A stretch of 64,000 nt of DNA from Psammoneis japonica (taxonomy: Eukaryota). Position 1 is the first letter of the stretch; the number at the start of each line of letters is the position of its first letter. The position numbers were made by a program, and so were the translations under genes. The DNA lies in assembly GCA_008632985.1 (NCBI GenBank), contig QPGO01000208.1:1-64000 (forward strand), written 5' to 3'. The notes beneath the pieces are model-generated. The model had not been told where the DNA came from. It did no database searches and saw nothing but the letters and a program-made list of their open reading frames with translations. Of the stretch, positions 9,785 through 60,497 are shown piece by piece.

Positions 9785-12239
9785 GGTAAGTATCTACTCT
9801 CTGCTCTAGTAGAGAGAGTAGGAGAGGGCCCTACCACCAGTAGCTAGAACACCAGCATCTATCTAGCCCATGATATTTTCGTTGACCCAAGCAATTACAG
9901 TGTGGCTTCCTCGATTGAAGCTAACCCAGTTCACAGTTTAGTACTCCTATGACGTGCTACGAGCTATTTCACACATGCCGAGAATTGCCGTCGCTAGACA
10001 AGCAGCCAACAGTAGAGATACCATTCAAAAGAGAGTGACGTTGGGTGGAAGTATGATGTATGTTGTTCCAAATGGCGGCTTGTTTTAGTCGTACAGTACG
10101 TATCCTAGATTGCCCACACGTAGAACCGTACGTTTTCAGCGATTTTCAACGCGATTTTTTGGCGATCTTTGGCGAGCTGCGACGAAGACACCTTTTGATT
10201 GTTTAACGAGTTGTGACCTACAGGCCCGTTCATTACAAGACAATTGATCGTAGATGGGTGATGGAGAAGTGTCAAATGACCGGGACTGTTAACATCTAAA
10301 AGAAGGTGAAATCCTTGTTGCATTTTTTGTCAACTGGGAAGCGTGCCCTGGGGATGTGAGTGAGTGGATTGCAGGTTGCCTTTTAGACCTGGCAATTGTG
10401 CGACTTTGTTGGCAAGCGGCTCCCATCAAACTATGGTCACCCCCCTTTGATTGCCCCGGTTCGGATCACCGTGCACCCGTGAAGAGCCTGGCATTTCCTA
10501 AATCTGCGACAGCATGTGAGTTTCCCATTTGACTTTTACATTCAGAGCTCTTCCTTGCCCAAAAATGTTTTTGGCCTCCTCCAGCCAGTGCATCACCGTG
10601 GAATTTTCAGCTTTCTGTTGCTGCAGTTTTCCATGTTTGTGGTTGTCATGCTGGGCTCACAGCCGCCTTTTTTCTTGTCGCAGGGTCGCAGGCATGGTGG
10701 CAAAATGCAACTTGCAAATTTTTTGGGTTCCATTTGGGGCTGACATGAAAAACAAACAAGTCAGCTGTGCTGGCATCTGTGCATCAAGAATTAAAGTTAA
10801 TTTGACTTTCTCAATGCACAGCTGCTTGGCTGCAAACAACTCCACAACAAGCACAGCACCTGGCGACATTGTTTTTGAGCACAACAAGAAAAGCTTTGGC
10901 GGGCAAAAGCCATGTGGAGGTTGGTGCAGTTTTGCTGTGCAGCAGCCCTCTGGTGCTCTTCTTTTTGAAGCAGCAGCACTCTCACCAAAAAGAAGATCCT
11001 CCATGCCTAAATGACCAATCAAGAAAGATGATTCCATCTGGACAGCAATCTTTGCAAGTGATGCCAACAAACAACAAGCCACATGGAAAAGAGGCGTGCA
11101 AATGAGAGCAAGTGCTGATGCTTGAGGCCTGAGCCAACATCTTTTAAAAAGGGACAAACCATTCACAATGGCTGGGGTTGTTGTGTCAGGTGCGTGTCAT
11201 GGTTTGATCAGGGTCAAGAGAGAAGCCTGGGCTTGACTTGACTTGAAACTTCACTTCAGTCTTGGTGCTTGACAGCTTGAACTGTGCTGTGAGTCAGAAG
11301 CTGCTGGGCTGTGCTCTGCCCCCCAGCATGCATGGCCAAGTGCCAAAAGCCTCCTGTCCAGTCTACAGGGAGCTCTTGTGCTGGCACACCCATTTTGTCC
11401 ATGCAGCTGGCAGCACTTTGGTGGGTTGCTTGTGAGCAGAGCAACAAGTTGCAAGTCCCTGCAAGCAAGCCAAAAGAGGCAGGCATGTTCCCCCAAACCT
11501 TTCTCATTTTCTGCTCTGGCTGGATGACCCAGTCAGACAAAAGGGAAGAGAACAAACAAACAAGAAAAATGTGCTCTCAAACCCCAGTTTGGGCTGCAAT
11601 CATGATTGCCTCCCCTCACAGTTGCCCCCACAAACCTTGTTGAGCTGCAGAAGACCAGCAGTCTGGGGAACAGATGTGGAGCAGAGGTTGCAGCATGGAC
11701 TCAACATGGACTCAGCATGCAGCAAAAGCAGCAAGGCTGAAGTCCACATGATGTGTTGCAGCATGACAGGGGGCATGAAACACAGTCCTTGTGTGACACG
11801 GAGTGGGAGTGTGCAAAGCACAGCAAGGCCCACCTCAAATGTCAGACCACCTGACATGGATCATGAAGCACAGGGGTCTGTGTTGAGCATCAGACACCAT
11901 CTGTGGTGGGTCCATCACAGGGCCCTAAATCACCCTGTGTCTGGTCACCAGATGTGCGGCAGCTGAGGTCTGTCACAAGCCCATCACACTCAATTCACAC
12001 AAAGATCATCCAGCCACAACATGTGTCCTGTTGTCAGACATCTTGTGACCAAGGTCTGTCACAATTTCATGTCAAGTTGCTGGGGGTCATCCTGCTGCAC
12101 AAACCATCCTGTGTGAGACAGGACAACCAGTTGTTGCCAGTTCTTGAACACTTGGCTGGATGGAACCTGGAGCTCACAGTGGGTTCACAAAGATCCAAAA
12201 AACATGTGTGCATGTCAACAGCTTCAGCTGAGAGATAAA

Positions 12240-14790
12240 TGGATGAATTTCCACCAGTGTGGCACACATGTTGACTGGAAGAAGATGATGGTGACTGCTC
12301 CTGAGTGCTCTGCAGAACAATGATGTGGTTGAGACCACATTGATCTGACAAGGGCCGGGTGACAATTTCATGGAGAGATGCAGCACACCACTTTTGCTTT
12401 GCTGCTGTTGAGTTGTGGGTGATTTCCTGGGTCAGGAACCACTGCAGGAGCAAACAAATGAAAGTCGTTAATGATGACACAAGTCAGGTGCACAATGCAT
12501 GCAGTTGCTTGCCAGTTGGAGCTGGGTCTTGTGCAGCATGATGTGCACTGCCTTGGTCAATTTGAGTGCTGTCACCAACCAAGACAATCTGAGCCTGATC
12601 TCAAGACAGAAACTGCCACTGAAACAACACACACTTTGTTTGGTGTCTCCACTTTCCACATGCTCTCAAGCTCTCTTTTGTGGGTTGCCATTCACTGCTC
12701 TCACCTTCAAGTCTGCTGTCAATTGCAGCATTTCCAAATGAAATGATTGCTGGCCAGTGTGCCAAGCCTTGCACCATGCCGTGCTGCTGAGGCTCAGAAG
12801 AAAACTGCTGCCTCTTGGCACAGTCAATGATGGTGCATTGAAGGCTGGCCATCTGTGCCTTGGTCAGTCTGTTGGCATGGACCACTTCAGTCATTCAATT
12901 GGCAACAACAGCAGTGCATTGTGGCTGTGTTTTTGTCAACCACCACATGCCTCTGCCCCTGAGCTCATCTGCACCAGGCACTGAGTTGGCTTCTCTGCAG
13001 TTGAGACAATGTGGGAAAAACAAGCATTTTGGAGCAGATGGCCGGTGGTCATGGCATCATCACGCACAGGAGCTTTTCACCAAAAACAGGTCATTCAAGA
13101 ACACAACCAGCTCATTTCTCACACATCTGGAAACACTCAGCAAGCACACCCGCCATTGTGGTGTCAATGCCCACCATCAGACTGGTGTGTCTGAGCACTC
13201 CATTTGGACACCAACGTGGCACACAACGATCCTTCACACATCCATGCATTGGTGCAGAGGCGTCGACAGCTTGCGGTGGCCTGTGGCAGTCAACTGTGCC
13301 ACCCAAATTTTCGACAATGCTCTGGTGTCAAATGGTCATCTCTGTCCTGCTGCTGACTTTTACACCATCCCATGCTGCTGTTTGCAGGGCTCGCATGCTT
13401 GGGACTGTCCAGTCTGTGTTTGGGTGCCCCAAGTTGCAACAGGGTCAGAAGCCACCATGCTGGCAGCCAAGACCCAAAGCATGGGCTTTTCCTTGCTTGG
13501 CCTCAGCCCAGTTCAATCCAGCAAGGTCCTGCCACTCCTCAACTTGAGCACTGGAGGGTCTGTCACTCTCCTCAGTTCCATGTGGTGTTTGAGCAACAAT
13601 CTCTTCTCTCAACAGTCACATCAATCAAGAGCAGGAAGAGTGAACCACCTGCACTCTGGGAAAAGATCTCTGTTTGGAGAGTGCCGCTCAGAGGCCATCA
13701 GATTTGCTGAAACTGTTCCTTTAAGATGGTTGGCTCACACCTGTGGATTTCAAGCAGAAAGAGCAACATGAGGAGTGGGAGCAATGCAAGACAGCAACCT
13801 GATCATGCACTCACATCCTCCATGTCACCAGCCCACAAATGCCAGCAGTGGGGGCAAGGCTGTCCACAGGTCAACCTGCATTCATGCCATCAACTGCCAG
13901 CAACTTGCCATTGATGCCACCTCAGGAACCACCATTTTGGCCTCCTCAAATCTCCAGCATCATGAGCAAATTGGCTGTTGACACTCCCATCATCCACCAT
14001 TTGCTGTGTGTCTGCAACCTCCTTCAGGCAAAGAAAGAGCAAGGCTCAGGAGACACTTTAGTCCCAAGCCCCACTGTCCCAGTGAGAGCCCCACCTGTGG
14101 CTGCAAACAGCCCATGTGTTGCTCACAAACAGAGGGCAAGGGAACATGCACATCAACCCATTTTGCAGACGAAGCCCATCTGTCCTCAGTTGAGGAGCTG
14201 CCCAGTGCTGCTGAAGGACAAAATGCCCTGCTTGCTCACCTTGCTGAGAACCAGACCTGCCATGACAGTGGTGTGTTGGACACCGAAGCTTCTCACATCT
14301 CTGAGCTGCCAAAAGACCAAGAACAATGGCAACATGCCAAAACCATGCAAGAAGCTCTCATGGGCAAGTTTGCAGAGCAGTGCTTGGGGGACAAAGACAG
14401 AGATTTCTGCACACTGAGTGCTGGCTTCGAGAAGGTTGGACAACTTGCCAAGTTGATGCCATTCAAGTGCTTTTGCACTGGCCAAGATCACCAAAGATGT
14501 CAGTGCAGACAATCCAAAGTCTTTTGGCCCCAGCTCTCTGGTTCCAACATGCTGCACTCAAGCTGCTCAAGACCATCTGTTTGTTGAAACAATCCCTAAA
14601 ATGCATCTTAGAGAAGCTGTGCAATGTGGGCTTGAGCAAGGCTGAGAGACTCAGTCCAAAGCAGGCCATTGCATTTGTTCTTCAACAAGGATGGCATGAT
14701 TTGTGCTGTGTGTGTTGATGACACTGTTCTTGCTGGCAAGGATGGAGATGCTCCAGAGTGCAACATTCAAGCTCTGGGAACACAAAGTTC
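12240..14790 (+). mobile_element. Ty1/copia LTR-retrotransposon pol relic, copy A (integrase + partial RT)
   Basis: Degenerate motifs in copia order: GQSVGMDHF, CGCVFVNH, HCGVNAHHQTGVSEHSIWT, HAWDCPVCV..PKLQQGQKPPCWQPR, GLSPVQSSKVLPLLNLSTG, WTTCQVD, KLLKTICLLKQS, MICAVCVDDT (=YVDD). Many frameshifts. Confidence 0.9.
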
Positions 14791-14794
14791 AACA

Positions 14795-15078
14795 TGTTCT
14801 CTGTGCTCATCCAGAAGTGGTGGTTTGACCAAAGGCCCAAAGCAAAAAAGTGAGGCACGGCAGCTGGCTCCAGCTCTGTGTGTGAAAACAACAATTGCAC
14901 ACCTTGTGTGACACTTGAAAATTGAAATTTGAAATGAATGTTTTCAACCAAGGAAAGTGCAGTGAAAATTTGTTGTGCTGCCACTCCTCTGTGGTGCACA
15001 CACTTGTTGCTTTTGTTGAATTTCTCAATTGAAGGACCAGTTTGTAAAGATTTGAATTTTCAAATGTTAAAAAGCAGA
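14795..15078 (+). repeat. Dispersed repeat; diverged second copy at ~24055-24305
   Basis: Shared colinear blocks GGTGGTTTGACC…CAGCTGG…CTTGTGTGA…TGAAAATTGA…CTTGTTGCTTTTGTTGAA…GGACCAGTTTG…AATTTTCAAATGTT. Confidence 0.75.
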
Positions 15079-15299
15079 GGTGTCATGTGCCACAGAGTTG
15101 AGAAGCTTGATGTTGGCTTTGCCATGGCTGGCCAGCAGTGCCCTGGTGCAAAGCTGTCAACCACGATGGCTCATGAAGACATGCTGCTGAGCTGACAGCT
15201 TTGCTCAATGACAAGAGAGAAGTTTCACCAAGGCAAAAGTGATGAGGTCCACAGCCAAGTGCCAAGCTTTCTGCCCAGTTCACAGAGTTGTGCCAGCAT

Positions 15300-17960
15300 G
15301 CCCAATGCCCCCACACAGCTGGTGGCACTTTGGCTGACAAGAGTTGGGCAACATTTTGGTGAAGAGATGCACAGCACACCTTGCTGTGCTGTCTCAAGTG
15401 GCAGGCAACTGAGCTCTAGAGAGTCAACAACCATCTCAGGAGCAAACAAATGAAAGTTGTTGACATCCCAAGTTAGATGCAACAAATGCAGTCACTGGCC
15501 AGTTGGTGCTCTGCCCAGGCCCATTTTTGAGTCTTGTCTCCAACCCAGACAATCTGAGAAGAACTTGACCTCAGGATGGAAACTGCCATTGGAGCGGCAT
15601 GCTTGGTTTGGGCATTTCCACTTTCAACACATTCAAGCTCTCCTTCATGAGTTGATGCCACCACCCACTGTTCTCAAGTTCAACTCTGCCACCAAATGTG
15701 CAAGCAACACCCCCAAATTCATTGCCTCAGAGTGCACCAAGCCTTGTCACCATTCTGCCAAGGCTGAGAAGAAGACTGCTGCCCCTGAGTGCAGTCAATG
15801 ATGGTGCATTGAAGGCTGGCCACATGTGCCTTGGCCAGTCTCTTGGCATGCATGGATCACCTCAAATTGCGCCTCTGAAGGGTTGCACATCTGTCATTGA
15901 GTTTGCAAAAACAGCAGTGCATTGTGGCTGTGTTTTTGTCAACCACCGCGTGCCTTTGTCTGAGCTCTCATCTGCATCAGGCATCAAGTTGGCTTCTCTG
16001 CAGTTGAGACAATGTGGGCAAGACAAGCATTTTTGAGCAGATGGTCAGACTCACAGCATCATCATGCAGGAGCACCTCACCAAAAATGGGTCAGCCAAGG
16101 AGACAGTCAGTTCATTTCCCACATCTGGAACACTCAGCAGCACACCCACCATTGTGGTGTTGATGTCCACCATCAGAATGGCGAGACTGAGGGCTCTGTT
16201 TGGCCCATCTCTCATGTGGCATGTCCTTCACACATCCCTTTGTTGGTGCAGAGGCATCAGAAGCATCTTGTTCTGGCCTGCCTGTGGCCTGTGTCAGTCT
16301 GCTGTGCTGCCACCCAAATTCACAACAATGCTCCAGGGTCAAATGGTTGTCGCCCCATCATGCTGCTGACATTTGTGCTGGATCTGCCATCCCATGCTGC
16401 TGCTTGCAAGATTTGCCTGCTGCTTGGGGCTGTCCAGCCTGTGTTTGGATCCCAAGTTGCAACAGGGTCAGAAGCTGCCACAAGTTGACAGACAACATGA
16501 AGGCACAAGTTTTGCTGGGCTTCAGCTCAGCTCATTCTAGCAAGGTCCCACTGGCCCTGAACTTGAGCACTGGGTCCACAGCTCTCCAGCTCCATGTGGT
16601 GTTTGATGATTCATCTCAACAGCCACACTGGTTGAGAGGGACAGGCAGGGAGCTGCTTTCAGCAGCACATGGGGAAGATCTCAGTTTGGAGATTGCCGCT
16701 CAGATGCCATCAGATTTGAGCAACAAGCAAACTCTTCCTCCAAGATGATTGACTTGCCCCTGTGGAACTCAAAAAGAGTGGCAGCAACATGAGAGAATGG
16801 AAGCACCACATTGGAGATGCAAGGCAGCAACCTCTGACTGTGCACCCTTTTTCCTCCACATCACAAAATCCAGCAGCAGGGCCAAGGCCATCCACATGTC
16901 AACCTGCATCTGTGCATCAACTGCTGCCAGCAACTTGCCATTGACACTGCCTCAGGAACTGCTGTCACAGTCTCCTCAAACCTCCAGTCCATCAACAAGT
17001 GAGCTGGCTCTTGACACTCCATCATCTTCCACCTCCTCCTTCAAGTGGAGAGGCCCAGGACACTTCAGTCCTGTGCCCCACTGTGCCAGTGAGTCCGCCA
17101 CCTGTGCGGGTGAACAACAGCCTGTGCACTGCTCACAAACAAAGGTCAAGGGATCACACACATCAGCTCATTTGCAGATGAAGCTCATTTGTCCCCTCAG
17201 CTGAGCTGTCTCATGCCAGAGGACAAAAAATGCCCACCTTGCTGAGATCCAGAGCTGCCATGACAGTGGTGTGTTGTGGACATTCAAGACTCTCATGTCT
17301 GAGCTGCCAAAACCAAGAACAATCATGATGACATGACAAACATGCAAGAAGCTCTAAGGGCAAGTTTGCAGAGCAATGCACTGGGGCCATGAAGACAGAG
17401 GTTTTTGCATTGGTGGTCCATTGCCAAACATGGCCATGCAACAAGTCCATGAATGTGCTGTGAAATTAATGTGGGCTTTCAAGTTGAAGCATCTGCCTGA
17501 CAGAACTTGGCTGAAATTTGACAAGGCACAATTTTTTTTTGCGATGAGAGGGGGTCAATTGCTTCAAGGCTTGTGCTGCAGCAGTCCAGTGGCTGACCAT
17601 TTGTCTGTTGTTTTGAGAGAGCCATGCTTTGAGCTTCAAGAATGTTGGATGACTTGCCAAGTTGACCATCCAAACACTTTTGCACAAGCCAAAAACACCA
17701 AAGAGATGTCCACACAGACCCTCCAAAGTGTTTTGGCCCCAGCTCTCTGGCTTTAACACACACTCTCAAGCTGCTCAAAACTCTCTGTGAGTTGTTGAAA
17801 AGCACAGCTGTCATGCTTGTTGTGTGCCATGTAGTTGAGAGGCTTGAGCATGGCTTTGCCCAGCATCACCCTCCAAAGCTGTCAACCCTCTTGTGTCACA
17901 ATGACATGAGCTGAAGACTTTGCTTGATGTGAGAAGTTTGACCATGAGGCAAAGTGATTG
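15300..17960 (+). mobile_element. Ty1/copia pol relic, copy B, tandem to and homologous with copy A
   Basis: GAG-pre-integrase-like NLTSGWKLPLERHAWFGHFHFQHIQALL, HCGVDVHHQNGETE, LGFSSAHSSKVPLALNLSTGS…HVVFDD, WAFKLKHLPDRT, QVDHPNTFAQA, KLLKTLC. DNA similarity to copy A (CAGTCAATGATGGTGCATTGAAGGCTGGCCA at ~12821 and ~15792). Confidence 0.9.
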
Positions 17961-18089
17961 GATCACTAAAAGCAGTGCATTGAGGCTTTGACAATCCCAA
18001 GCTTGCAAGGGCAAGGGCAAATGCCATGGAAAAAGGGAGTGATCACACTGCTTTCCCCAGATTGCCTTGTCCTTCTCCAACACTGTGTC

Positions 18090-18420
18090 TCCCAAGGATG
18101 CTCCAGCTCCACTGCTTGCTCTCCCATCCTAAAAACACCAATGCCTGCACCTCAGGTCCAAACATTTTTCCAGTGCACTCACCAATCTTCTTCATGGTTT
18201 CTGTGCAACCATTTGCCTGTTGTCCCAACTCAGCAATGGCAGCATGCACCCACTCCTTCAACTCTTTTGCACCCCTGTGCTCAGCCACATCTTTGCCCAT
18301 TGTGCTGACCCAACACAACCTAAACTGCACCCTCCTTTTGCAGACCCTTGTGAGCACACTGCAACAAGGTCCCTGGAAATTGTTTGCACCACTCTTTCCA
18401 TGAAACCTCCAGCTGCACTG
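18090..18420 (-). mobile_element. Possible copia gag N-terminal relic
   Basis: NNFQG…QQANGCTETMKKIGECTGKMFG resembles, from memory, the diatom copia gag pattern QA..YT.T.K.I.EY.G if Cys is read back to Tyr. Confidence 0.3.
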
Positions 18421-20623
18421 CAACAAGGCTCTCCAGAGACTTTTCTGCCACCACACTTTCAGTGGACCCTCCAGCTGCACTGTGCTCTTTTTGGTGATGT
18501 CCACTGCTTGCCAATGGAGTGATGTCTCGCCAAACCCCTCAAGTGTCATGCCAGAACTTTTCAACTTCTGTTTTGGAGCTTGACAGCTTGCTGACAGGCT
18601 GACATTTGGTCTTGCTGAACTCCCAACTCACTGCATGGCTTGCAAGCATGTTGCCATTGCCGTTGTTGCCACAACTGCCATGCTGACCACCAGGTGCAGA
18701 AGCCCAAGAGTGGGAACAAGACCTGCCATTCATCAGAAGGAATGAACACATCTTTGCCATGTCATTTGCCTCTGTCAGCACATCCAACACTGCAGCACAG
18801 TCTGTCTGTTCTTGCAAAATTGCCTCTGACCCTGACGTTCCAACACAAATCCTTTAAGAGGGCATTGTGTGGCAGTGTCCACTGTCAAAAAATTGTTTTG
18901 TTGCACCCAGTCCTGCAGAGAGAAAGTGACAAATGTGTCAACAAGTTGCAGGTGTGGTGCTGTTGTCATCTCTTGCTGCTGGCACCAGATGCTGTGATGA
19001 ACTCAGCTTGGCAGAATGAGACTAACACTGAGGGGGTTTGCACACACAAGTTGTTGACACACAATGGCATTGCTGGCGAAAACAAGAAAGGAAGACCCTG
19101 AGATGCAGCAATCAAAATGACAAATGTCAGCAGCCCAGTCAGAAGCCTTGTGTCCAGTTTGGAAACAATCAACCTTTGGCTCACTCAATTGTGAGGCACT
19201 GTCGTTCTCATGGGATGCACAGCAGAACATGAGAAAATGCAACATCAGCAAAAAGAGTGAACCCAGTCAGCACATGAGTGGTCTGGCTGTGGCTTGCCAG
19301 AATCAGCGTGCTGCAATTTCTTGTCCACCACTGACCTCTCAACAGAGAGCCCTTGATTTCAGACACATGACAAACAATGAGCTTTGTTGGAAGCTGCTGT
19401 GCATCTGCAAAAACACCAGTTTTTTGCCAAAAGCAACATGCACTGCAGGACACACAACCACAACACTGTTGACCACATGGCTCTCCAGGTGTGTTCTCTG
19501 CTGAAAGCACATGGCCAACGGGCCAATGTGGTGTTTTTTAGTGCTCTGCCCCATGCACCACAAGCAAGAAGTGCAATGAGAAAGTCAACCAAGAAGGGAC
19601 TTGACACAAGCTTGTCACCGAAGTCACACTTTTGCAAAAAACACCAGCTGTTTTTTTGCACATTGCGAGAACAATTGCACCCAAGAGAGAAGAGGCACAA
19701 AATAAAGACAAGTGGCAGCTTCACTGTGTTGTTCTGAGCCAGTTTGAATTGCAGTGGAATTGCAAGATAGAAAGCCAGTGAAATGTGCCCATCTTGGGAG
19801 GTGAGATGTGTGTTGCATCAAATTGGCATGCCAGGGCACACACAGCAGACAAACTGGAGAACAGAATCATCTTCATGTGTTGAAGCTTGCTGCAAAAATG
19901 GACCTGGCCAGTTGGTTTTATTTGGAGCAGATGTTGCACCAAAAATCTTCACATGGTGGGCAGAGGCATTGTTTTTGAGCTCAATCAATGCCCACAAGGC
20001 ACTCTGCTCAACATGGTCCAGATCGGGTCACATCACACTTCTGATTGCCAAAAAAGCTTCGCCCACCTTGTCATCCCCTCAAGCAGATGCAACAATGTCC
20101 TCTGCATGTTGTTGTGAACAAAGAAAGGCTTGGTGTGGAGTGCAGTTGAGTTAAAGGAAAGAGCCTTTCCCAATGCCATCCTGACAGACGAGGTGTTCCA
20201 TGCCAAAGAGATGCAGCAGGACACATCCACCCACCACAGAAATGCATCAAATGATGAACTGCTGCACATGTGGACAACATCCAAGTCACGTGGCACACAC
20301 ACACCCATGGGCTGGTTCAGGCATGTGTGCACCTGTGAGGTGCAAGCAGAAAACATGTAAAATCACTGCTGAGTTGGCTCAACAGGCAGCAGATTTTTTC
20401 TCAAACACAGAATCACGCAAGTTCCTGAGGCTTTCACATGTCATATTCAAAAATGTGTACTATAATTTTTATAAGAATACAACAAAAGAATGAACGGGAT
20501 TTTGGAGGAGAATGGTTGTACTGTAACTTGCAGAATCGAAGAAGATAGATGTGTACCGTACTGTACGTAGAGAATGGAGAGCACGAAGTGGGCAGGAATC
20601 CGATGTATCTACCGACGCATGTT

Positions 20624-22639: not shown

Positions 22640-22721
22640 TTCGCTGCTTTGAAAATTGTGGAAGCCTCGACGAGTTATAGCACAAGAGAGCAACGAAACG
22701 CCCATGCTCTGGTGACAACAT

Positions 22722-22965
22722 TCCCGCAACAGATCAATCGTATTCGTGACAGAAACGTCCATCAGCAAATCACATTTTAGCAGACATGAGAGCTGACCAA
22801 TCAGTTTCATTTTTTTCGCAACAGTTCAATCGCGTTCGTGACAAAAACGTCCATCAGCAAATCACATCGTAGCAGATATGAGAGCTGACCAATCAGTTTC
22901 ATTTTTCCCCGCAACCGAGTCAATCGCATTCGTGACAGAAACGCCGCCGTCAGAAAATCAGTTTC
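22722..22965 (+). repeat. ~93-bp tandem repeat (2.5 copies) upstream of the protease gene; each full copy has a CCAAT-box-like TGACCAATCAG
   Basis: CAATCG.. TTCGTGACA at 22735, 22827 and 22921; TGACCAATCAG at ~22794 and ~22886. Confidence 0.85.
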
Positions 22966-40704: not shown

Positions 40705-40957
40705 AGTAGTTTTTACAGAAGCAGTAGCTACTTTGATTTTGCGCGCGTGAGATTACGAGCTCGAGATAAGAGGTGATTATGACAAGAGGACTATACTTTA
40801 TGAACACGATCATCGTCATGATGAACAGATTAGAACTATATGGTTAACTGATAAACGAGTTTCCGGGACCACTCGCTTTGTACCTGCCACGCGAGATATC
40901 TACAAACCGATCCTGACCCACGCCAAACGCATCTGGTCGGTACTAAACAAAGATCCT

Positions 40958-45375: not shown

Positions 45376-45429
45376 GTTCTTGCACTTTTATTCAATGAGC
45401 CACACAACAAATTACTCTGTCTAACGTGT

Positions 45430-45960: not shown

Positions 45961-45969
45961 TCTCAAGCA

Positions 45970-46360: not shown

Positions 46361-46809
46361 GGAGGGGGGGGGGGGGCAACACGTCATCCATTTGTTGCAC
46401 CGACGGCTCCAAATTCACTCCTTGGCATCCTCGCGCCTGCAGCAGCACACGACACCACAACTGCTTCGCAGGGCAAGCCAGCCGTGATGATTGATTCCAG
46501 CAAGAAACTGACAGGCTTTGATGCCTCAAATGTTGCCAAGAAACAAACAACCCCCCCGATTGCTGAGTCGGCCAAGACACCAACGCCCCCCATTGATGGC
46601 ATTGATGCCTCAATTGTCGACAAGCCATTTGCCGCCCCTGTTGTCACCGCAGCCAAAAAGCGCCTTCACCAGAAAGATGCAGTCACACCACAAGACGCTG
46701 AAATGTGGGAAGACTCTCAGTCACAGACTTCTGTCTGCTGACATTGACAATGCAAACGTTGGAGAAGATCGTGCGGGACAACATTCTTTGGACTAAATGG
46801 GGCAGTCTC

Positions 46810-49450: not shown

Positions 49451-52400
49451 TTGTAGACTTGCATTCCTTCACACTCCCATTGTTCAGACCGGGACAAATG
49501 GTCCATTCAATCATCATGCAATGACCCTTGATCATGAAAAATGCTGAACGTTTGTAGAGCTGCAAGATGATGCATTGGCGGCCCTCATCATGGCTCATGG
49601 TGGGTGTTTTTTGTGATGTGTGATGTGCCTGCGCAGTGTGCTGTTGCGCAAAACAAGAGGCTTTCAAAAGGTCCTTGACAACAGCAAGACAGAACTTCCC
49701 TGATTGAGATGCAGACAAGACACAGCTCAACAGATTGCCAGCAACAGAAGGCATTTGCTGGCACCACAAATCTGTGATGGTGTCATTTCACTGGTGCAAC
49801 TCTTGCTGCTGGCACCCATCACCCCCGCATCCATCAGCTGGCATGCCTGCAATGTCAACTCTTGGTGTTTGTCTTGTTCCCAGCCCCCCCTGATGCCGGC
49901 AACAACCACGATGATGTCACAAGCAATGTGGTGTCATTTCACCGGACACTCCATTGCTGCTGGTGCACCTGCAATGTCACTGCTGGTGGTCGCCCATAAT
50001 TTGATGTCTGTGACCAACCTCACACAGCCAATCCTGTTCCCGCTGCACCTGTGACAGTGCCTGGCCACACTGCCATCCACTGTCATCCCCCCCCTGCCAG
50101 CAGCAGTGTGAGTGGCAGCACTCAACTGACAAGAACATGACAACAATGCATGCATTGTTCATTTGTCACTGTGTTGCCACACAAATCACCTCACACCATC
50201 ACTGATGTTTTCAATTTAAAGCTGCCAAGTTCTCACCCATTGCCTTGTGTGGTTTTTCTGCCTGCTCTGCTGTGTCCATTCCCATCACTTTTGTTGGCAG
50301 CAACTGCCTCAGTCATCTCAATCACAGCATCACAGTCTCCCAGCTCATTCATGTTGTCCATCTTCTCCACCGTGCTGCTGTTGGTTTGTGATCCTCTTGG
50401 CAACAAAATGCTGCACAAGATCACATGAGAAACATCAGGCACACATGCCACATGCTCCACCAACTGTGCAGATTCTGTGCTCACCTTCTCCTGGAGCATT
50501 GCCCCTCTTAGAATTGCCTGCATTCTGGGGTTTGCTTCCATGATCAGTGCAAACTCCACAGTGTTGTTCTGCACATGGTGCTGTGCAACAACTTGTCATT
50601 CTACATGGAAGATGACAGTGTGGTGCAACATGACAGAATGTGGGTAAACTCCTGTCATTCTTGGGTGGCAACACTGTGCCATCATGTTTGTGACAACACA
50701 CACAATCACATTGCATGTGTCATGCTCACCTGTTGCGCACTGTCTTGCTTTGCATTGCTCATGCTGCTGTCACTGTCTTTGTGTTGTTGTCATTGTCTCA
50801 TTTGCCAGCAATTTGATGGTGTGACTGTGACCATTTTTTTGTGCGATGTTTGCACGCTGTTGCTGTTTCAGTGCTCTGTGCTCACAGTGCAAGTTCTGTG
50901 TAAAATCAACCAAGCACAAATGTTGTGATGTTCAACTCAGCAGTTGTGCATTTGTCATTCAAAGAAATGCAGTTGTTTGTTGACAAAGTTTCTTGGATGT
51001 TTTTCAAACACATGCTTTCTTCATCAGCTGTGTGGCATTTTTGACATTTTCATTGAAATGTCTCTGTGCTCCAAGCCATCATTTTGACCAGCCAGAATGA
51101 CCAAATGAAAATGATGCAGTCCTGTGCTGACCACATTTGGCAACACATGTCATGGCAGTGCACCTCTGTTCCTGTCCATGATGCAGCCACGGGCAGCAGG
51201 GTTCTCTCCATTGCATGCAACCATCATTTGTGATTGTCTGTTTGTGCTGCCCCACGCATCACTGTCATGCCATTGTCTGGGGCAGAAATCCAGCATGAAT
51301 GCAGAGAGAGACAAAAGCACTGGAGTGTTGTTTTGTGTGGTGGAGATGTGCCTTTTTGCCACAGAGCCAAGCCTGTCAATCTCATGAACATTGTCTGCGT
51401 CATTTTGCAAGTGGCAGTTGTGCAAAAACCACTTTGGTTGTGTCCATTTTTGAAGTTTCAAATCATTTGAGCCAACTTGAAAATGAGTCATTTTGTTCAT
51501 CTTCGCTGCCGATGCAGCACTTTGCTTGTGAGCTTGGAAGAGCTGATGACCATTGAGCATTTTTTCAATGTGATGTGGCACACTTGTTTTTGAGGAAGAT
51601 TGGTGTCTCTCAGGTTGATGATCTTGGCCAGCTCTCATCAAGAATGAAATTTTCACATTTGTGTTTGCTTTTTTGTGTTGTCATTTGGGCTGCTGTTGTG
51701 ACAGATCTTTGCAGCTGTTCCACACATGCACAACAAGAACCTTTGTGGCTGTTGCAACAGTCTCATCAGCATGGTTGAAACTTGCAGGCAGTGGTTCAGA
51801 AGAGGTCACGGAGTTTGTTGCACAACCAGGCTGGTGTTGTGCAGCTCTGGTGCCATCTGTCTTGCATCCTCTGCCTCAGCCACAAGCACACTTCAAACTT
51901 CAAACTCTCAACTCCAGAACAAAAAGACCCTTTGATGGCACCAACCAATGCAACAACAGAATGATGAGGGCATTGGCAGCATCATGTTGATCCCAGGTGA
52001 CACAGCAACAACTGTGGCTGAGCAGTGCAAGGTGCCTGTCATGTGGCTGTGGTCCCAGCATGTCACCTTGGCCCAACAGGAGGAAGAGAGCAGGCTGGAC
52101 AAGCATCTCAACTTGACAGTGAAAGGGCAAAATGGCAGTGCCAACCAACTGGTTGCAAGCTGAGGACACTGGTGGCATCTAACAGACATCAGGCAATGTT
52201 TTGAGAGATGTTGTTGGGCATTGCAACATTGACCTGGCGTTGTTGTTCCTGCTTTCTTGTCCCCAGCAGCAGCAGGCTTGATTGATCTGGTGGCACTGCC
52301 ACCTTCTTGTCCCTTCAACAGGAGCAGTGGGCATGACTTTCCCAACTCCAGAGTGCAAAGATCCCCTGTGACAATGCCAGACAACCTGACAACAGCAAGC

Positions 52401-53084
52401 TGAGGGGGCACTGGTTGTCTCTGGTGGGCTCCAGGCAGGAGAGACTTTGAGAACTGTGGTTTGTGAGCAGCACTTCAAGCTTCATTTTGTGGTGTGTTGT
52501 GCACATCACCTTGTCCAGATGGGAGGAGCAGACTTCTCTTGTGGTCCCCAGGCAAGACTTGGAGAGTTGTGTTTGAGCATTGCAAGGTTGATCTTGTGAT
52601 GTTGTGGCCCCATTGTACATTGTTTCCAACCATGGCAGGTCAGCAGCAGACACCACCCTGCATGATTTTCCAGGTGCAAGAGTGAACAAAAGTTTGATTG
52701 CAACAGAATGGCAGTGTGTGACTGAAACTTCAAAACACAGTGTGCTGGGAACACTGGCAACATGAAACTTGCATTGCTGTTGTTGAGGCTGTCTGCAACT
52801 TTTTTTTTGCTCTTGACAAGAAGAATTCATTGCAAAGCTTCCACAAGTTGTGCGACAACAATTGCGCAAATGTTGACTTTGGTTTTTGTTGTCAAAATCA
52901 AGCTCCAAACAACAACAACAACTTGACTCTCTCCTTGTCACACGTCCAGCATGTCAATTGTCATCTTTTGTTTTCAAAGACAGCTGCACACCAGATGGTG
53001 GCACACTCATGACAGTTTCCATGTTTTGTTGTCAAGATCTTGTTCACAATTGACACACTTGTTTCAAAGCCAGCTCATTCCATG

Positions 53085-54720
53085 GCTCTCTCAACCATGG
53101 CAGCCTTGCACCTCTTGACCATGTCTCTCAAGATGTCACCTGGTGTCAACAAAAGACTGTGTTGGCACCTTTGGACTGCAGTTGTTGGATTGGTTGCTGG
53201 ATGCATGCTGTCCTTCCACTGCAGAGCTGGGATTTTCAGTCTCACCCTTGGCTTTGTGTGAAGTGACATGAGACCAGAGCTGAGCCAGGGTGGCCTTTCA
53301 ACTCTCAGCCATGGCCCTCAAATGCCAAATGGTGTCTGCCAAAGACACTTGATGCCTTGTGGCTGCAGTTGTTGGGTTGGCAGGTGTGCTCACAGTGTCC
53401 CTTCACTGCAGAGTTGAGGCTTCAAGTCTTGCCTTTGGCAAGGTGTGAAGCAGCAACAGGGGCAACAACTGATCCAGGGTTGCCTTGCAACTCTCAACCA
53501 CAGCTCTTAAAGTGTTGCCTGAGGTCCACCAAAGACCCTCAATGCCTTGTGACTGCAGTTGTTGGGTTGGCAGGTGGCCCACCAAAGACCCTCAACACCT
53601 TGTGACTGCAGTTGTTGGGTTGTCAGGTGCACTCATGGTGTCCCTCTTCACTGCAGAGTTGGGATTTCAAGTCTCACTCTTGGTTTTGTGTGAAGTGACA
53701 TGAGGCCACTGCCTGGCCAGGGTGGCCTTGAAACTCTTGACCATGGCTTTGAGTGTTGCCAGGGGTCTGCTGAAGGCCTTCAGCACCTTTGGATGGCAGT
53801 TGTTGGGTTCTCAGGTGCACTCGTGGTGTCCCTTCACTCTGCTGAGTTGGGGCTTCAAGTCTCACCCTTGGTTTTGTGTGAAGTGACATGGGGGACAGCT
53901 GAGCCATGTTGGCCTTGCAGCTCTTGACCGCAGCTCTAAAAGTGTCACCAGGAGTCTGCTGAAGACCCTCAATGCCTTTGGATTGCAAAAGTTGGGCTGT
54001 CAGGTCCACTCATGGTGTCCCCACACTGCAGAGTTGGGATTTCAAGTCTCACCCCTGGCAAGGTGTGAAGTGACATGGGGTGACAACCCACCCAGGGTGG
54101 CCTTGCAACTCTCAACCACAGTCCTTAAAGTGTTGCCTGGGGTTGACCAAAGACCCTCAATGCCTTGTGACTGCAGTTGTTGGGCGGTCAAGGTGTCCCT
54201 TCACTGTGGACTTGGGACTTCAAGTCTCATCTCTTGTGGATTTTTGTGAGGTGACATGAGGCCAGAGTCAAGCCAGGGCAGCCTTTCAAAACTCTCAACC
54301 ATGGCTCTCAAAGTGTTGCCTGGGATCCACCAAAAACCCTTGATGCCTTTGGACTGCAGTTGTTGGGTTGTCAGGGGCATTCATGGTGTCCCTTTGCTGC
54401 AGAACTGGGGCTTCAAGTCTCACCTTTGGCTTTGTGTGAAGTTGCACAAGGCCACAGCTGAGCCAGGGTGGCCTTGAAACTCTTGACCACAGCTCTCAAA
54501 GTGTTGCCAGGGGACTGCAAAAGACCCTCAATGCCTTTGGACTGCAGTTGTTGGGTTGATTCATGGATCCATGGCACCCTTCCACTGCAGAATTGGGTTT
54601 TTAAGTCTCAACTTTGGCTTTGTGCAAAGTGACACGATGCCACAGCTCAGCTGGGGTGGCCTTGCAACTCTTGACCACAGCTCTGAAAAAGTGTCACCTG
54701 GGGTCCACTGCAGAGCTGAC
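53085..54720. repeat. Tandem array, ~188-bp unit, ~8.5 diverged copies
   Basis: GACTGCAGTTGTTGG-like anchor at 53174, 53361, 53551, (53604, a 53-bp internal duplication), 53792, 53981, 54169, 54352 and 54540. Confidence 0.95.
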
Positions 54721-57039
54721 AAGTCTGTTCTCATCATTGCAGCAATGACTTCTGGCACTTTCTTGCAGTTTGGTCTTGATCTTAGAGCCCTGGTTGCTTG
54801 AAAACGTCTCTTTCTAAGGAGACGTGAACAATTGAAGCTGTGCTCTGAATTGATCTGTTGCAGCTGGCAGAGACAACTCCCAGCTGCAACCAGCCATCAA
54901 AAGCACTGGCACACACTGGTTTGTGATGTTGCTCTCATTCAACAAAGCCATTCTCACCATTGCAGTGAGAGCTGCTGGTGCTTTGAGCCTGCAGAGAGAA
55001 CTGCCTGCATGCACACCAAGCTCTGGATCAAACCCACTTTCATGGTTAAATGGCGCCAACTGTGCTTGTTGACTCTCGCTGTTGCTTGCATTCAACATCC
55101 TTCCACACAATGGTCACTTCCTGGACTGTTGCAAGGCATTCAATCTGCACCATTGACAAACTGTGCATCATTTCATGAGTGCCAAATGACAAAAATGGGT
55201 GTCTGACAGAAGGGCTTCATCTCCAGCTGTCATCATTTGCCTGTTGCTGGCAGCATTTCTTTCTGCAGCTTGGCTTCAATCTCAGAGGCAATGGCTGCTT
55301 GAAAATGCCTCTTTCCAGACAATGTGAACAACCCAAGTTGCACTCTGAATCATTTGGCTGGAGCTGTCACATTCACAGGATTTGCAGCCCACCTGCGCTT
55401 GCAGAATTTTTTTGATGCTTGACAGCCACCCAGGATTGTCCCATTCATTCACAGAGGGTGGCATTTGAGCCATTGATTGAAACTTTTGGATGGTTCAACA
55501 CAGACATTGAGTTGACTGACAGTCGCAAACAATCTTGACAAGCAAGGATTGCTGTGCTTGCTTTTGCTTTTGACATGAAGAGCACAGCCAAAGAAAGACC
55601 TCATGCCTTTCTGTGTCATCTTCATTGAGTCCATCATCCAAGTCATGGGTGCCTGCATCATGCGCTCAACATTTGACCTTCAAAACATTTGCTGTCATGT
55701 TGGATGCAGAACAAACAAACAAAAAAATTGAGTGGAAAGTTCAGATGACAATTGAAGGCATTGAATGAAGATGCCATGCCTTGCTTGAGTGCCCACACCT
55801 CATGACATTGAGATTTTAACAAACTCTCCAGGTTTTTCTCACATTTGGAGTCAAACATTGCTGCCGCTGCACCCAATCCCATGGTCAACTTGAGCTGTGT
55901 CCGCGTCTGCATTTTGGAATGACACAGAAGAAAAATTGATTTTGTGGGTCACACGAGAGCACTTTGGTCAAAAGGCCCAAAAGTGTCATGAGTGGGTGTC
56001 ACAGGCAAGGGGAGGGGGTGAGAAAGAAGGTCACAAACTCACAAAAGGTTGGGGGGGGGGGGGGCAACAGGAAGGCTGTGATTCAGATGAGCAGTGCGTT
56101 GCTGGCAGAGGGGAACTGGAGAAAGTTGTTGCTGGCAAGTGGGGTTGAATTTGCCAGCAGTGCACATTGCAGGCAAAATGCCAAAAACAGACAGCACTGT
56201 CCACTGGTCTTTGCTGTCACACACCAGAAACAACTTGTGTTGCTCAACATTTGAAGGCAGTGGCCAGTTGCAAGACAAGAAAAAGGAGCTTCTTCATGTT
56301 GAAGGCAATTGTGGCAGCAACAGGCATCACTCAGGCATTGTCTGGATTGGCTGCAGAAAAGTCCATGGTGGTTGAGAAAGCAAACAATGCAAACCACAGC
56401 CTTCATTCTCACCCCCAAAACAACCCTGACAATCCTGTGTTTTAATGAATTGTGATCATGGTGAGTGATGTTCCGATCAGCCATCATGCTTGGCAACCAC
56501 ACTCAGCAATCATGCTCAGCAACACACCAGGATGTGCAGAATCCACACAAATTCCAAAACAAGGCCCAATTTGATGATTGTTGGGACCAGGTCTTGCAAG
56601 TGCCATGAAAGTGTTGACTCGAGTGACTGAGTTTTCAAACAGCCACATTTTTCAGCCATCCTCAACAACCACCAACCATCCCCTTTGGTTTCTCAATGTT
56701 GCTTTTGCATGTTGAGGGAAGTTTTGTAAGATGAGTTTTTGCATGCGGTCTTTGTGGTGTGTGTTTGAAACCTTCATCATGAACTTGTGATGCACTGGCT
56801 GTGATCTCACAACACAACCATGATGCAGAGCAGACAGCAACACATTTCTCCAGCTCTTGCAGCCTCTGTGGCTGATCAGCTGTGATGCCATCTAAATGGC
56901 ATTGCCATGCCATCCTCCAAGTTGGGTCATGTCAAAGTGCACATTCGCAGAGAGTGAAACAAGGAAAGACAAAAAAAACAGAAAAAGAAAAAATGACAAA
57001 TCTGCTGTGCAAGTCATTCATGATGATGGGTGCAGTGGC

Positions 57040-57990
57040 AAGATCCCTCCCACACAACAAGACCATGATGGCATGGAAGAAGAGCTGGTTGTTGTTGTGG
57101 TCTCAGAGGAAATGCCAAAGAAGAAACAGGAATGGGAGGCAGTGGACAGCTGCAATTCTTGCCTGACATGATTCTGATGATGACAATGACAGCAGCAGAG
57201 GAGATTTGCCACCAAGACAATGAAAGCATTGCAACTCACTGAGTGCATCACCTCCTTGCAGAAAAAGCCATCAGACAGTGACAGCAGTCACAGGCTTGTG
57301 TGCGACATCAGATGGTGAGCATTCTCTTGCAAGAAGATGCTGGAGGCATGATTCAGGTGACAGCTCTCCTCCTCCCAGAAGAAGGCACAGGCATGGTTCT
57401 GACCATGCACAACAATCAGCAGGGATCACATTCAGTGCTTTGTCCTTCCATTGATGTGGAGTCACTTTGTCAACTGCACAGCACAGCAACAAATCGGGCC
57501 AACTTGATTTGCAGTCTTCAAGAGCTCTTTCACAGCCACTTGGCTGGGACCCTGATGATGAGCTTCCTCCCACACAAGAATGTCACAATTTAGAAGAAAA
57601 GCTGGTTGTTGTTGTTGTTGTGGATGCAGAAGACAGAAGAAATGGGAGGCTGTGGACAGCTGTGATTCTCACCCGACACAATGACAGCACAGCAGAGATG
57701 ATTTGCCACCAAGACAAAGAAAGCATCACAACGTGCCAAGTGCATTGCCTTCTCACAGAAAAAGTCATGACTCAGACAGTGGAAGCAGCGTGCAGGCTCA
57801 CAAGTGACACAGACATGACTCAGATGAGAGCAAGGATTCTCCTCCAAGGAGATGCCAGAGATGTGATTCAGATGACAGCTCTTCTCCCTGTGGAAGAAGG
57901 CACAGACATGATTTGGACAATTGAAGTCCATCTCCTCCAAGATGCCACAGACATGACTCTTCTGACAACAGTGGCAGCAGCAATGGTGGA
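57040..57990 (+). repeat. ~520-bp diverged tandem duplication
   Basis: CCTCCCACACAA…GAAGAA.AGCTGGTTGTTGTTGT…AATGGGAGGC.GTGGACAGCTG…GATTTGCCACCAAGACAA at ~57046 and ~57566. Confidence 0.85.
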
Positions 57991-60497
57991 GAGACAATGA
58001 GTTTGGGTCACACACGGCATGTTTTGTGGAATTGAGCAAAATGCAAACAGAGTCCTTTGCACAGAGGGCTGATCATGAGGGCTCAGAAGACATGAGAAAG
58101 AATGAGATTTATGCAGAAGAAACCATGGCTGCACATTCAATGGTGTGAACAGACTGCTGGTGGGGAAAGGTGGACAGCTGGCCATGTGGATTTGGTTTTT
58201 GGATCCAATTCTAAGCTTTGAGAAATTGCTGAGTGCTGTGCCTGTGGCAATTTGCAAAGCGTGTTTGCAAGCAATTTTGCCAAGGCATGGACAAAAATTG
58301 TGAATCTTGATCATTTTGACCAGGCTGTGAATGGCACTTCTGCACCCAAGTTGAAGTCATGCTTCTGGAGCTTGAAAAGCTGTGGCAGGGAGGCAAGACA
58401 TGATCACATGAGTGCTTCATGACAAGCGTCAATTGTGCCCACAAAATTTTCATCCCTGTGTCTCATTGCACTCGCAGCATGGTCATTCACAACAACAATT
58501 GAGACAAGACAAAGAAGCAACACCCTTTCTTGCTGTGATGGCAACAACATCTCTGGTCTTCAAGCAACCATTGGGGTGGACTTTTTGCCTGTGCAGTTTT
58601 GTCAGCAGGGCTGTGCTTGTTGCTTGCGTCACTGAGGTTTGTGCCTTTGCCAGGGGTGTTTTGCACACTGCTTGCATTGCATGGGTTTGCACGTGAGCTG
58701 GGATGCATTGTTGTGGTGAAACCCACCCTCTGCAGTTTGAAGATGCCACATCAATGATCCTTCATTGAGTGCAGAATCTCCAAGTGTGAGTGTGCAAGAA
58801 AGTTGAAGAATCAAAAAGGCAGCAGTGCACAACAAGGCAGACCAAGTTCAACCATGATGTGTGCAAATGGAAGAAACAACAAAGACAGCAGGCCAAGAGA
58901 TGTAAAAGAAGACAAGATGCTGCCAAAACCCTTGAAAAAAAAACTGCCCAGGAAACACTCATGCACTGATTTGAGCTCCAGTGCAAAGAGCAATTCTCTT
59001 GTCAATGGACTGTCAAGAGTGTCTTCATCATGATCAGAGCAGCGTGCACCATGACAAGCCCAGCAGGAGCCGCGATGAATGCATTTTCACAGTCATTTTC
59101 AAAATGACACATTGAGATGCTGACGCCGCACTTGGGGATCCACAAATTGTCAAAGTGACACATTTTGATGCTGACCCCACAATGCTTGGGAATCCCTGTG
59201 CAAGCAAGGGCCAGCCCAGCCCCAAAAGGCACGCCAACTGGTCCAATCCTGAATTGCTTGAGTTTGTCTTTGCTCAACCAACCTGCTGTGGATGACATGT
59301 GTGCAAGGGCAAGGGAAAGACTCAAAAAAGGTGCAACAATGCCACACTGGATGAGAAGAGTGCTTGAGCGGCACAGGCTGCATTGTCTCCTTTGGTGCTG
59401 CATCCCCCCAAGTCCTCTGTTGATGATGTGACATCTGTGCAACTCATGGATGGGAGCATGCCATGCTGAGCAGTGCTCTTCTTTCTTCAAACCATGTCAT
59501 GTGTCATGAAAGATGATCCCAATTGCATTCAATGCAAATGACTCAGCAGCTTTGAGACAACTGCACATGACGCCTTTTGTCCTTGGCAACAAAATGAACT
59601 TGCAGCAGAACAGACAAGATGGCTGAGATTCTCAGCATCCATGCCAAGATCCTCTGGCATCTCAGCAACTCATCACCTTCTCATCCACACAAATGACCTG
59701 CACTGTCCTGGTTGAAGGTGATGAAAAAAGTCGCCGGGCATGCAAGGGGGTGTTGCCCAACAAGGAAAGAATTTGTTCTGGATGCACAGTGCTCCATTTC
59801 CTGGCCTTGCAATGGTTGCAACTGACAGTCCTGACTTTGCAGCCACATGAAGGACCCGCAGCACCGAAGTGGCCTCAAAGAACTTTTTGAGGCACACGGC
59901 GCTGAGAAAGAATGCACGTCAAACATGCCTCAAACAACTCACAATTCGGCGCCACTCCATCAAACTCATGGATCTCACAAGTGTCATCAAATGCATGGGC
60001 TTTCAACAAGACTGATGTAAATGCAGGACTGCATCCTCCCTGAAGCCACCGCCAGCACAGTTTGGTCTAAAGAGGCACAAGCTGAGCGGGCCCCAGCCAA
60101 CTTTTCTTGGCCTCTGTCAGTGAGAATGGATCAGCTCTTGCTTGCAAAACCACAGAAAACCTCTTCACTCCTTCTCCAAATGCTGCTTTGTAAGTCAGGA
60201 GAGGAAAGTGGTGAGCAGAGTCAAACCTCTCAGAGACAGCCTGGCACTCTAGAATTAACATAATGTGCTGGCTGCATGGAATAGCACGATCATCTAAGCT
60301 CGATAGGATCACCAACTGCGCCAAAATAACCATCGCGAAACTTTCTTCGAACTTTAATGCAACGGAGAAACGGCCCACGCCACGTAGATTTCTACGTGTC
60401 TTGTACCACGGACCACGGCGCCTCCATTGCAGACAGAATCTCTTCTCGTTCGAGTGCTCTCACAATTTCTGAATTGCTCGTCAGTTCACAGTCCATC

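Follow-up and report, generated by a model that had tools for sequence, protein, structure and literature searches.

Three blocks in a 64,000-nucleotide stretch of the diatom Psammoneis japonica (assembly GCA_008632985.1, contig QPGO01000208.1, positions 1 to 64,000; this whole stretch is called the window) are almost devoid of TA dinucleotides, in large part poor in CG, and rich in CA and TG. We propose that these blocks have been rewritten in place by two context-specific transition processes, of which the one acting at TpA would be driven by an enzyme directed against silenced or foreign DNA; we put the probability of this reading at roughly 0.7. A TpA-only signature of the same kind has been described in the alga Bigelowiella natans (bioRxiv 10.64898/2026.01.13.699255), and by analogy the diatom blocks are probably the saturated end-state of that kind of process.

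Extent and Base Composition of the Blocks

The scan for TA, CG and CA+TG composition covered the 64-kb window. TA-poor blocks were called with a sliding rule of at most three TA per 300 bp, alongside tables of dinucleotide observed/expected ratios (o/e) per kb. The rule returned three blocks with a total length of 28.8 kb:

10401-20461, no strand: block 1, TA-poor throughout and CG-poor at 10681-20521; GC content 0.49, equal to the flanks
22881-24981, no strand: block 2, TA o/e 0.03-0.09, about half of CG kept
43601-60241, no strand: block 3, TA-poor throughout, CG-poor at 43761-45121 and from 48321 to about 60300

Within the blocks TA o/e per kb is 0.00-0.12, against 0.39-0.82 elsewhere in the window, and CA+TG o/e is 1.6-2.2, against about 1.0-1.4, while the GC content of 0.48-0.51 matches that of the window (0.49). 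The stretch 10521-20461 holds 36 TA, 53 CG, 1222 CA and 1110 TG, and 47261-60281 holds 33 TA, whereas about 500 would be expected at the 38.8 per kb of the flanks. The 21.7-kb core has 63 TA against 842 expected by flank density (Poisson log10 P about -269) and 134 CG against 1285. The edges are sharp at 100-bp resolution and abut adjacent open reading frames (ORFs): at 20400 the TA count per 100 bp jumps from 1 to 7, and at 60200, the right edge of block 3, from 1 to 5; the start of the same block lies within about 50 bp of a kinase ORF at 42425-43558(-).

The two losses do not share the same footprint. CG is nearly gone (o/e 0.03-0.28) only in 10681-20521, 43761-45121 and 48321-60301, whereas in block 2 its o/e is 0.44-0.46 and at 45-48 kb it is 0.48-0.79, with TA there already at 0.03-0.12. 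Roughly half to three quarters of CG survives in these TA-poor, CG-retaining zones (22.9-25.0 and 45.1-48.3 kb), and over their 5.3 kb there are 22 TA against 206 expected (89% lost) and 200 CG against 314 expected (36% lost). Because CG is retained where TA has already fallen this far, TA loss and CG loss are separable, and the TA loss has the wider footprint. The initial annotation, which was made from the sequence alone, had described three sharply bounded blocks that lack both TA and CG and are enriched in CA/TG, with some 25-30 TA in 47.4-60.2 kb where several hundred were predicted. The TA depletion, its scale, the CA/TG enrichment and the sharp boundaries are all borne out by the counts; the absence of CG holds in the three CG-poor stretches just given, but not in block 2 or at 45-48 kb.

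Conversion by Transitions and Its Sequence Context

Symmetrised dinucleotide densities per kb in the flanks and in the 21.7-kb core were compared as a mass balance. The flanks carry 145.8 CA+TG, 59.2 CG and 38.8 TA per kb (pyrimidine-purine sum 243.8), the core 234.4, 6.2 and 2.9 (sum 243.5), and the combined CG and TA deficit of the core (88.9 per kb) matches its CA+TG surplus (88.6 per kb). The zones that have lost only TA are balanced as well, with a pyrimidine-purine sum of 248.5 per kb. Since the pyrimidine-purine total is the same in flanks and core, TA and CG have been changed by transitions. The loss among A-containing steps is confined to TA, which stands at 0.075 of its flank density, against 0.85-1.14 for AA, AT, AC, AG and GA and 1.06 for AA alone. 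Mutagenesis of the Pol-eta type (WA to WG), a candidate offered by the initial annotation, was rejected on these values.

Survival of TA relative to the flank depends strongly on the neighbouring bases, being 0.55 in TTAA, 0.37 in CTAA/TTAG, 0.09 in GTAA/TTAC, 0.045 in ATAA/TTAT and at most 0.065 in all remaining contexts (0/206 in ATAC/GTAT). This flanking rule, by which TTAA and YTAA are largely spared and ATAC is fully converted, is a new and testable constraint on the agent. CG survives best in GC-rich contexts (about 0.2 in GCGC and CCGC) and worst in TCGA (0.036), and TCG is the most depleted of the NCG trinucleotides (0.07 vs 0.10-0.17).

The two conversions could in principle be the work of a single enzyme or pathway of dual specificity, either a deaminase that attacks the C of CpG and the A of TpA or a TET/JBP-type oxidase that makes 5-formyl bases, which would mispair, from 5-methylcytosine (at CpG) and from T (at TpA). 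In favour of this, ADAT2 of amphioxus deaminates both C, with TCG preferred, and A in DNA (PMC10354150). Both targets here are moreover self-complementary pyrimidine-purine steps that end as TG/CA, the mass balance is exact, and the most depleted NCG is TCG. However, the TCG preference is weak and could equally be explained by easier deamination of CpG in AT-rich contexts, and the TA and CG losses differ in extent. The TpA changes in B. natans, as given in the preprint text, come with essentially no G:C to A:T change (1/211; bioRxiv 10.64898/2026.01.13.699255). We therefore regard a single dual-specificity agent as distinctly unlikely and retain two processes.

Direction of Change in Dead Genes and Repeated Copies

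The direction of the change can be read from identifiable sequences inside the blocks:

12345-14411 and 15334-17409, plus strand: two direct copies of about 2 kb, about 70% identical
12667-13668, plus strand: Ty1/Copia-type integrase remnant, copy A (tblastn with integrase/polyprotein homologues, E down to 2e-29)
15550-16943, plus strand: Ty1/Copia-type integrase remnant, copy B (tblastn; Pfam SH3_retrovirus E=1.2e-4, under the curated cut-off)
43930-45310, no strand: TA- and CG-poor sub-block at single-copy depth (1381-bp contig with 2 differences, depth 61 vs 71 in the flank bin)
45162-45962, minus strand: fragment of an FG-GAP_2 gene, a dead copy (Pfam E=1.2e-9), in the TA-poor, CG-retaining zone
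46906-49283, minus strand: decayed NB-ARC/TPR (NLR-like) gene (Pfam TPR_12; tblastn of P0121-P0125, 45-65% identity)
53152-54710, no strand: 188-bp tandem array, eight aligned units about 75% alike

The change of tyrosine (Tyr) to cysteine (Cys) corresponds to TAY becoming TGY, and that of Tyr to histidine (His) to TAY becoming CAY. At the 15 positions where homologue P0121 has Tyr, the decayed NB-ARC/TPR gene reads Cys six times, His three times, Phe three times, Arg twice, Ser once and Tyr never; against each of the other four homologues 6 to 10 Tyr positions read Cys or His, again with no Tyr, while most of the non-Tyr residue classes are 40-85% conserved. Two homologue Arg positions are in-frame stops in the same gene, which also carries a frameshift and an internal deletion (about residues 430-895 of the homologue are missing). 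In the Copia integrase remnants, the four Tyr in homologue-conserved columns have become Cys (TGT) in three cases and Leu in one, and none of eight conserved Arg is kept, two reading His (CAC) and one Cys (TGT). Since every Tyr codon contains TA, the intact ancestors of such coding elements cannot have been TA-free.

The nucleotide comparison agrees. Contigs of a paralogous locus, assembled from public runs, align to 46.3-48.9 kb at 87-93% identity, one alignment showing 179 differences in 1,626 aligned bases (about 89% identical). Among the 28 in-block differences contained in the 40 that were listed out of about 1,950 found, the paralogue has TA opposite CA/TG of the window at nine and CG at two. 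The NLR-like dead gene, which lies in a zone that has lost only TA, thus has a TA-retaining paralogue, 87-93% identical, elsewhere in the genome. The FG-GAP fragment was considered for a spectrum at the nucleotide level against the intact in-window FG-GAP genes at 26517-31714, and was rejected as too distant (36% identical). The initial annotation had inferred a region-restricted process that converts A:T to G:C at TpA on both strands. This inference is upheld by the mass balance, the Tyr to Cys/His changes, the TA-bearing paralogue contigs and the TG/CA flips and strand symmetry described below, and polarised comparison shows TA to TG/CA in the Tyr outgroup columns (9/15 and 3/4) and in 9/28 of the listed paralogue differences.

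Copies within the window changed separately. Between the two 2-kb Copia copies of block 1, 57 of 211 adjacent double substitutions are flips between TG and CA, the next commonest type occurring six times; in the 188-bp satellite, CA in some of the eight units stands opposite TG in others at 18 of 36 pyrimidine-purine columns. In bins of up to 1.5 kb, 21 altogether, CA and TG counts show no significant difference (p>0.06 in each), that is, strand bias is absent. The change was thus made in place, INDEPENDENTLY in each copy, after copying and on both strands. A strand bias of CA over TG, which would have marked transcription- or replication-coupled editing, was rejected, with 0/21 bins biased. 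Strand symmetry together with independent change in the copies rules out one-strand RNA editing before integration as well as transcription-coupled damage.

The same observations bear on the idea that ADAR-like A-to-I editing acted on RNA before reverse transcription, or that the inserted elements were poor in TA and CG from the start. Copia-type elements pass through RNA. ADAR favours a 5' U, according to the B. natans preprint (bioRxiv 10.64898/2026.01.13.699255), and avoidance of UpA and CpG is described as common in viruses (PMC3829696). Against this, CA equals TG per strand in 21/21 bins, AA is not depleted, host-type pseudogenes, satellite and single-copy stretches are hit as well, the copies changed independently after duplication, and the conserved Tyr that a TA-free coding element could never have encoded are now Cys or His. 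Hyperediting of the ADAR type was accordingly rejected, and we consider this whole family of explanations barely credible.

Read Evidence for the Sequence

A further possibility is that modified bases of silenced DNA were miscalled, with real TA and CG being reported as TG and CA. Long-read base callers do err at modified motifs. Contigs of the public run X1 were assembled from exact 31-letter words, and 0.68 of the sampled words of 54001-64000 were present in the run. On the blocks these contigs show 1-11 differences per 0.6-1.7 kb at a k-mer depth of 51-71, the same as in the flank. The library type of X1 is not on record and the run is possibly the assembly's own data, which would leave room for an artefact. 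A base-calling artefact is nevertheless unlikely, because X1 contigs at a depth of about 60 reproduce the TA-free sequence: by our reasoning, noisy reads could not reach such depth in exact-word contigs, and a strand-dependent miscall would split each site into two variants and break the contigs. In addition, the in-block genes are truly dead, with frameshift, stops and deletion, and numerous transversions and indels separate the copies. Overall we hold miscalling to be very improbable.

Parts of the blocks are multi-copy, with contig depth reaching 1356 against about 60-70, or about 20 times baseline, and the single-copy stretch at 43930-45310 has undergone conversion to the same degree as the repeats. 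Run X2, of 30 million letters and guessed kind, covers the flanking genes, the TA-retaining paralogue and 45.7-49.7 kb; it has no cover at 43668-45668 and 49671-55006, and run X3 has none anywhere, from which we draw no conclusion about silence. If X2 is a transcriptome, the TA-retaining paralogue would be expressed.

A Model of Two Processes and the Evidence Against It

In the model that we favour, old non-functional DNA would first have been inserted or duplicated, and the rewriting would have followed. One process would turn CpG into TpG/CpA, most simply through deamination of 5-methylcytosine in methylated repeats. The other, faster and wider, would turn TpA into TpG/CpA, an A:T to G:C change at the self-complementary TpA step that would be confined to the blocks, fall equally on both strands and largely spare TTAA and YTAA. 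We infer that this second process is an enzymatic attack on marked, silenced or foreign chromatin, targeted through chromatin or methylation and serving defence. Deamination of adenine to hypoxanthine at TpA would be the likeliest and simplest A to G chemistry, and an adenine deaminase is our leading guess for the enzyme. The combination of strand symmetry with a palindromic TpA target suggests recognition of duplex DNA.

From paralogue divergence, after subtraction of the TA and CG share, the rate of change at TpA bases is estimated at about 30-40 fold over other bases, an estimate which assumes that flank densities are ancestral. It is a lower bound, because TA is exhausted.

The evidence does not all point the same way, and several observations weigh against the enzymatic reading. 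The excess just given is a rough estimate derived from divergence on the assumption of ancestral flanks. The one DNA-acting ADAT2 considered here prefers GAA (for A) and TCG (for C), and not TA, as far as the published account goes (PMC10354150). In the satellite, transitions per site are 0.115 at pyrimidine-purine positions against 0.088 at other positions, an excess that is not significant (Fisher p=0.08), and much of the satellite divergence is thus ordinary. The Copia pair differs by 203 transversions in 2,134 aligned bases with 465 gap columns, so that the copies are old and a slow chronic bias would fit them too. Not every repeat was hit, since a high-copy element of normal composition adjoins block 3 (see below), and the provenance of run X1 noted above also belongs here.

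One explanation that draws on some of these points requires no dedicated enzyme. A chronic bias of repair or replication in heterochromatin, for instance through a T:G-directed glycosylase recruited to methylated DNA or an error-prone polymerase, would resolve to G:C the T:G or A:C mispairs that form at TpA, a weakly stacked step, and TA would drain slowly from late-replicating, unselected DNA as a by-product without a defence role. The age of the blocks fits this, as do the lack of a surviving domain in most of them, the co-occurrence of CpG decay, which is itself chronic, and the satellite sites that are not significantly more changed than others. Yet about 90% of TA is lost where only some 36% of CG is lost and where the paralogue is still 87-93% identical; AA is untouched, a poor fit to WA targeting of the Pol-eta type; and a T:G to C:G repair bias of the kind known at CpG should restore CG from TG rather than remove TA. 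In B. natans, moreover, the signature arises in bursts that are limited to some lines, a pattern indicative of a regulated activity (bioRxiv 10.64898/2026.01.13.699255, as far as its text shows). We judge a chronic bias unlikely, though it deserves to be kept in view, and continue with the enzymatic reading.

Content of the Blocks

The initial annotation had spoken of transposon blocks, which is right in part: there are Copia remnants and repeats, but also a satellite and two dead genes, of the FG-GAP and NB-ARC/TPR types. The blocks are most likely islands of old DNA that has no function, and contain Copia remnants, the 188-bp satellite, repeats that cannot be identified and defunct host-type gene copies. 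Faint tblastn matches beside copy B give weak traces similar to reverse transcriptase at 17448-17693, and no pair of long terminal repeats was found. A Pfam search of 130 ORFs of at least 90 codons left 126 without a convincing match, only FG-GAP_2 and TPR (3-4 ORFs) exceeding the curated cut-off; weaker matches below it included SH3_retrovirus. Block 2 has no recognisable domain and no Pfam match in that search; a fragment of 98 bp is common to it and block 1. Viral genes were not seen in any of the blocks. The longest in-block ORF (12842-13768) is without relatives at E<=1e-5 among 5.8 billion proteins; metagenome contigs contain none either, nor any match to an exact 24-base word of the satellite. 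Among 114 database matches to the integrase ORF there is no clear hypermutated relative free of Tyr, the lowest Tyr content being 0.4%, with no excess of Cys.

Comparison with Known Systems

Prior to the 2026 preprint on B. natans, no eukaryote was known, to our knowledge, to direct A:T to G:C mutations to the TpA steps of particular regions. In mutation accumulation lines of that alga, two integrated viral regions acquired 231 de novo mutations, of which 230 were A to G or T to C changes, all of these at TpA, and the TpA rate was about 6e-7 per site per generation, about 1000 times background, in some lines only; 124 clusters of windows poor in TpA and rich in CpA+TpG are also present in its genome, and reverse transcriptase and DDE transposase domains are over-represented among TpA-poor genes (bioRxiv 10.64898/2026.01.13.699255). 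Using the window cut-offs of those authors (a Rho of at most 0.43 for TpA and of at least 1.52 for CpA+TpG; bioRxiv 10.64898/2026.01.13.699255), 9 consecutive windows in 11001-20000 and 16 in 44001-60000 qualify here, block 2 offering only two full windows.

As described in the preprint text, the two systems share an A:T to G:C change at TpA that gives TpG/CpA on both strands in discrete regions, which in the diatom too would be non-host or silent DNA, as well as long-term TpA-poor, CpA+TpG-rich clusters with reverse transcriptase and DDE genes; its authors likewise draw the comparison with repeat-induced point mutation (RIP). There are also differences. B. natans is a rhizarian (a chlorarachniophyte), whereas the blocks reported here belong to a diatom, that is, a stramenopile, and are saturated, at a TA o/e of about 0.04 against 0.45 for the region of nucleocytoplasmic large DNA virus (NCLDV) origin in B. 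natans. Here the process has hit Copia remnants, satellite and dead host-type genes, and no viral gene was seen; there it hits integrated viral regions. CpG has also been lost here, a dinucleotide with no occurrence in the text of the preprint, and the flanking-base rule by which TTAA is spared is likewise unreported in that text, although its supplementary tables may bear on it. Finally, the rate in B. natans was measured de novo, while the direction in the diatom comes from sequence comparison. The initial annotation had known of no description in diatoms, and indeed no account of TpA-targeted depletion in diatoms was found in the literature searched, nor are diatoms mentioned in the preprint text; what did not hold is the wider novelty, the same TpA-only signature being known in B. 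natans.

Like fungal RIP, the changes are irreversible, regional, dinucleotide-specific transitions of repeats and duplicated genes which leak into neighbouring unique DNA. Unlike it, they destroy TpA rather than making it from CpA, with CpA/TpG accumulating and GC content unchanged. RIP is usually called at TpA/ApT above 0.89 and (CpA+TpG)/(ApC+GpT) below 1.03; core and flanks give 0.055 vs 0.655 and 1.99 vs 1.153, both indices thus being shifted the opposite way, and fungal RIP was rejected. Of the duplication trigger that RIP requires the evidence is mixed: many parts are multi-copy, yet the single-copy stretch 43930-45310 is converted and an element of about 30-40 copies at 60343-61676 is normal. 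Enzymes of the DNMT4 type, relatives of the RIP factor RID, occur in diatoms, with no function assigned to them in the source consulted, and in Phaeodactylum transposons are CG-methylated through DNMT5a (both PMC9998398).

Decay of methylated CpG accounts well for the other half of the signature: CG o/e is 0.03-0.2 in the core blocks, CpG is depleted with a matching gain of TpG/CpA, and conserved Arg codons read CAC or TGT. It cannot remove TpA, however, and the TA loss spans 5.3 kb in which CG is only partly lost. APOBEC (on cDNA), ADAR (on double-stranded RNA) and ADAT2 resemble the process in being enzymes that make transitions with a neighbour preference and are used against selfish elements; the footprints of APOBEC and ADAR are strand-asymmetric and arise before integration, whereas the blocks are symmetric and were changed in situ.

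Neighbouring DNA

The remaining DNA of the window carries ordinary genes (FKBP, SAP, NYN, trypsin plus ricin lectin, Kazal, FG-GAP repeat proteins, PPR, ribosomal uL5 and kinases), including the one that adjoins block 3:

42425-43558, minus strand: protein kinase ORF, the clearest gene of the window; best matches 53-60% identical, in the pennate diatoms Fragilaria, Amphora, Seminavis and Mayamaea, so that the proteome of the source diatom itself is absent from the database searched

On the other side of block 3 lies a 415-codon ORF, 60330-61574(+), without a Pfam match or a usable ESM Atlas match. The element at 60343-61676 is normal in TA and CG, and the depth of its contigs adds up to about 1900-2460, where the baseline is about 60-70, which corresponds to some 30-40 copies; it is either an un-hypermutated high-copy element or a gene family. 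The intact FG-GAP_2 gene 26517-29027(+) consists of tandem units of 168 bp (56 residues) that are about 70% alike, and its TA and CG are normal, showing that tandem repetition alone does not attract editing. The FG-GAP_2 protein encoded at 28733-31714(+) runs into about 2 kb of low-complexity coding repeats rich in Pro, Thr, Ser and Ala, with periods of 18-264 bp (GC 0.60, GC skew -0.48, AT o/e down to 0.2), and from its sequence this part looks like the mucin-like stalk of a probable surface protein. A 92-bp tandem repeat of normal composition (22723-22943; 2.4 copies, 86% matches) lies right on the left edge of block 2, and 99-bp tandem repeats, about 92% identical, occur at 1549-2041 within an 801-codon ORF without a Pfam match, 446-2848(-).

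Implications

Blocks of this kind hide transposons from homology-based annotation and distort analyses based on composition. On the other hand, TA-poor, CA/TG-rich, GC-neutral windows provide a simple genome-wide screen for any assembly, and the context rule, the strand symmetry and the loss of TA ahead of CG constrain the candidate enzymes. A saturated signature in a diatom means that the TpA process is peculiar neither to a single rhizarian alga nor to integrated viruses; remnants of retrotransposons, satellites and dead host genes are exposed to it as well, and CpG decay occurs alongside it. This suggests that a poorly understood TpA-directed genome defence is widespread. Going further, it is possible, though we advance it only tentatively and with more doubt than conviction, that TpA-directed DNA editing is an ancient and widespread genome defence of the SAR supergroup, or of eukaryotes at large, which stands beside cytosine methylation and relies on an enzyme that would read the symmetric TpA in marked chromatin, with RTAY hit and TTAA spared. 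Editing of this sort would destroy every Tyr codon and every TA-containing signal of transposons, viruses and duplicated genes. NLR-like immune genes would then be among its targets, and editing could also generate diversity there. Genes of the immune-receptor type may be a side target of the process or its beneficiary.

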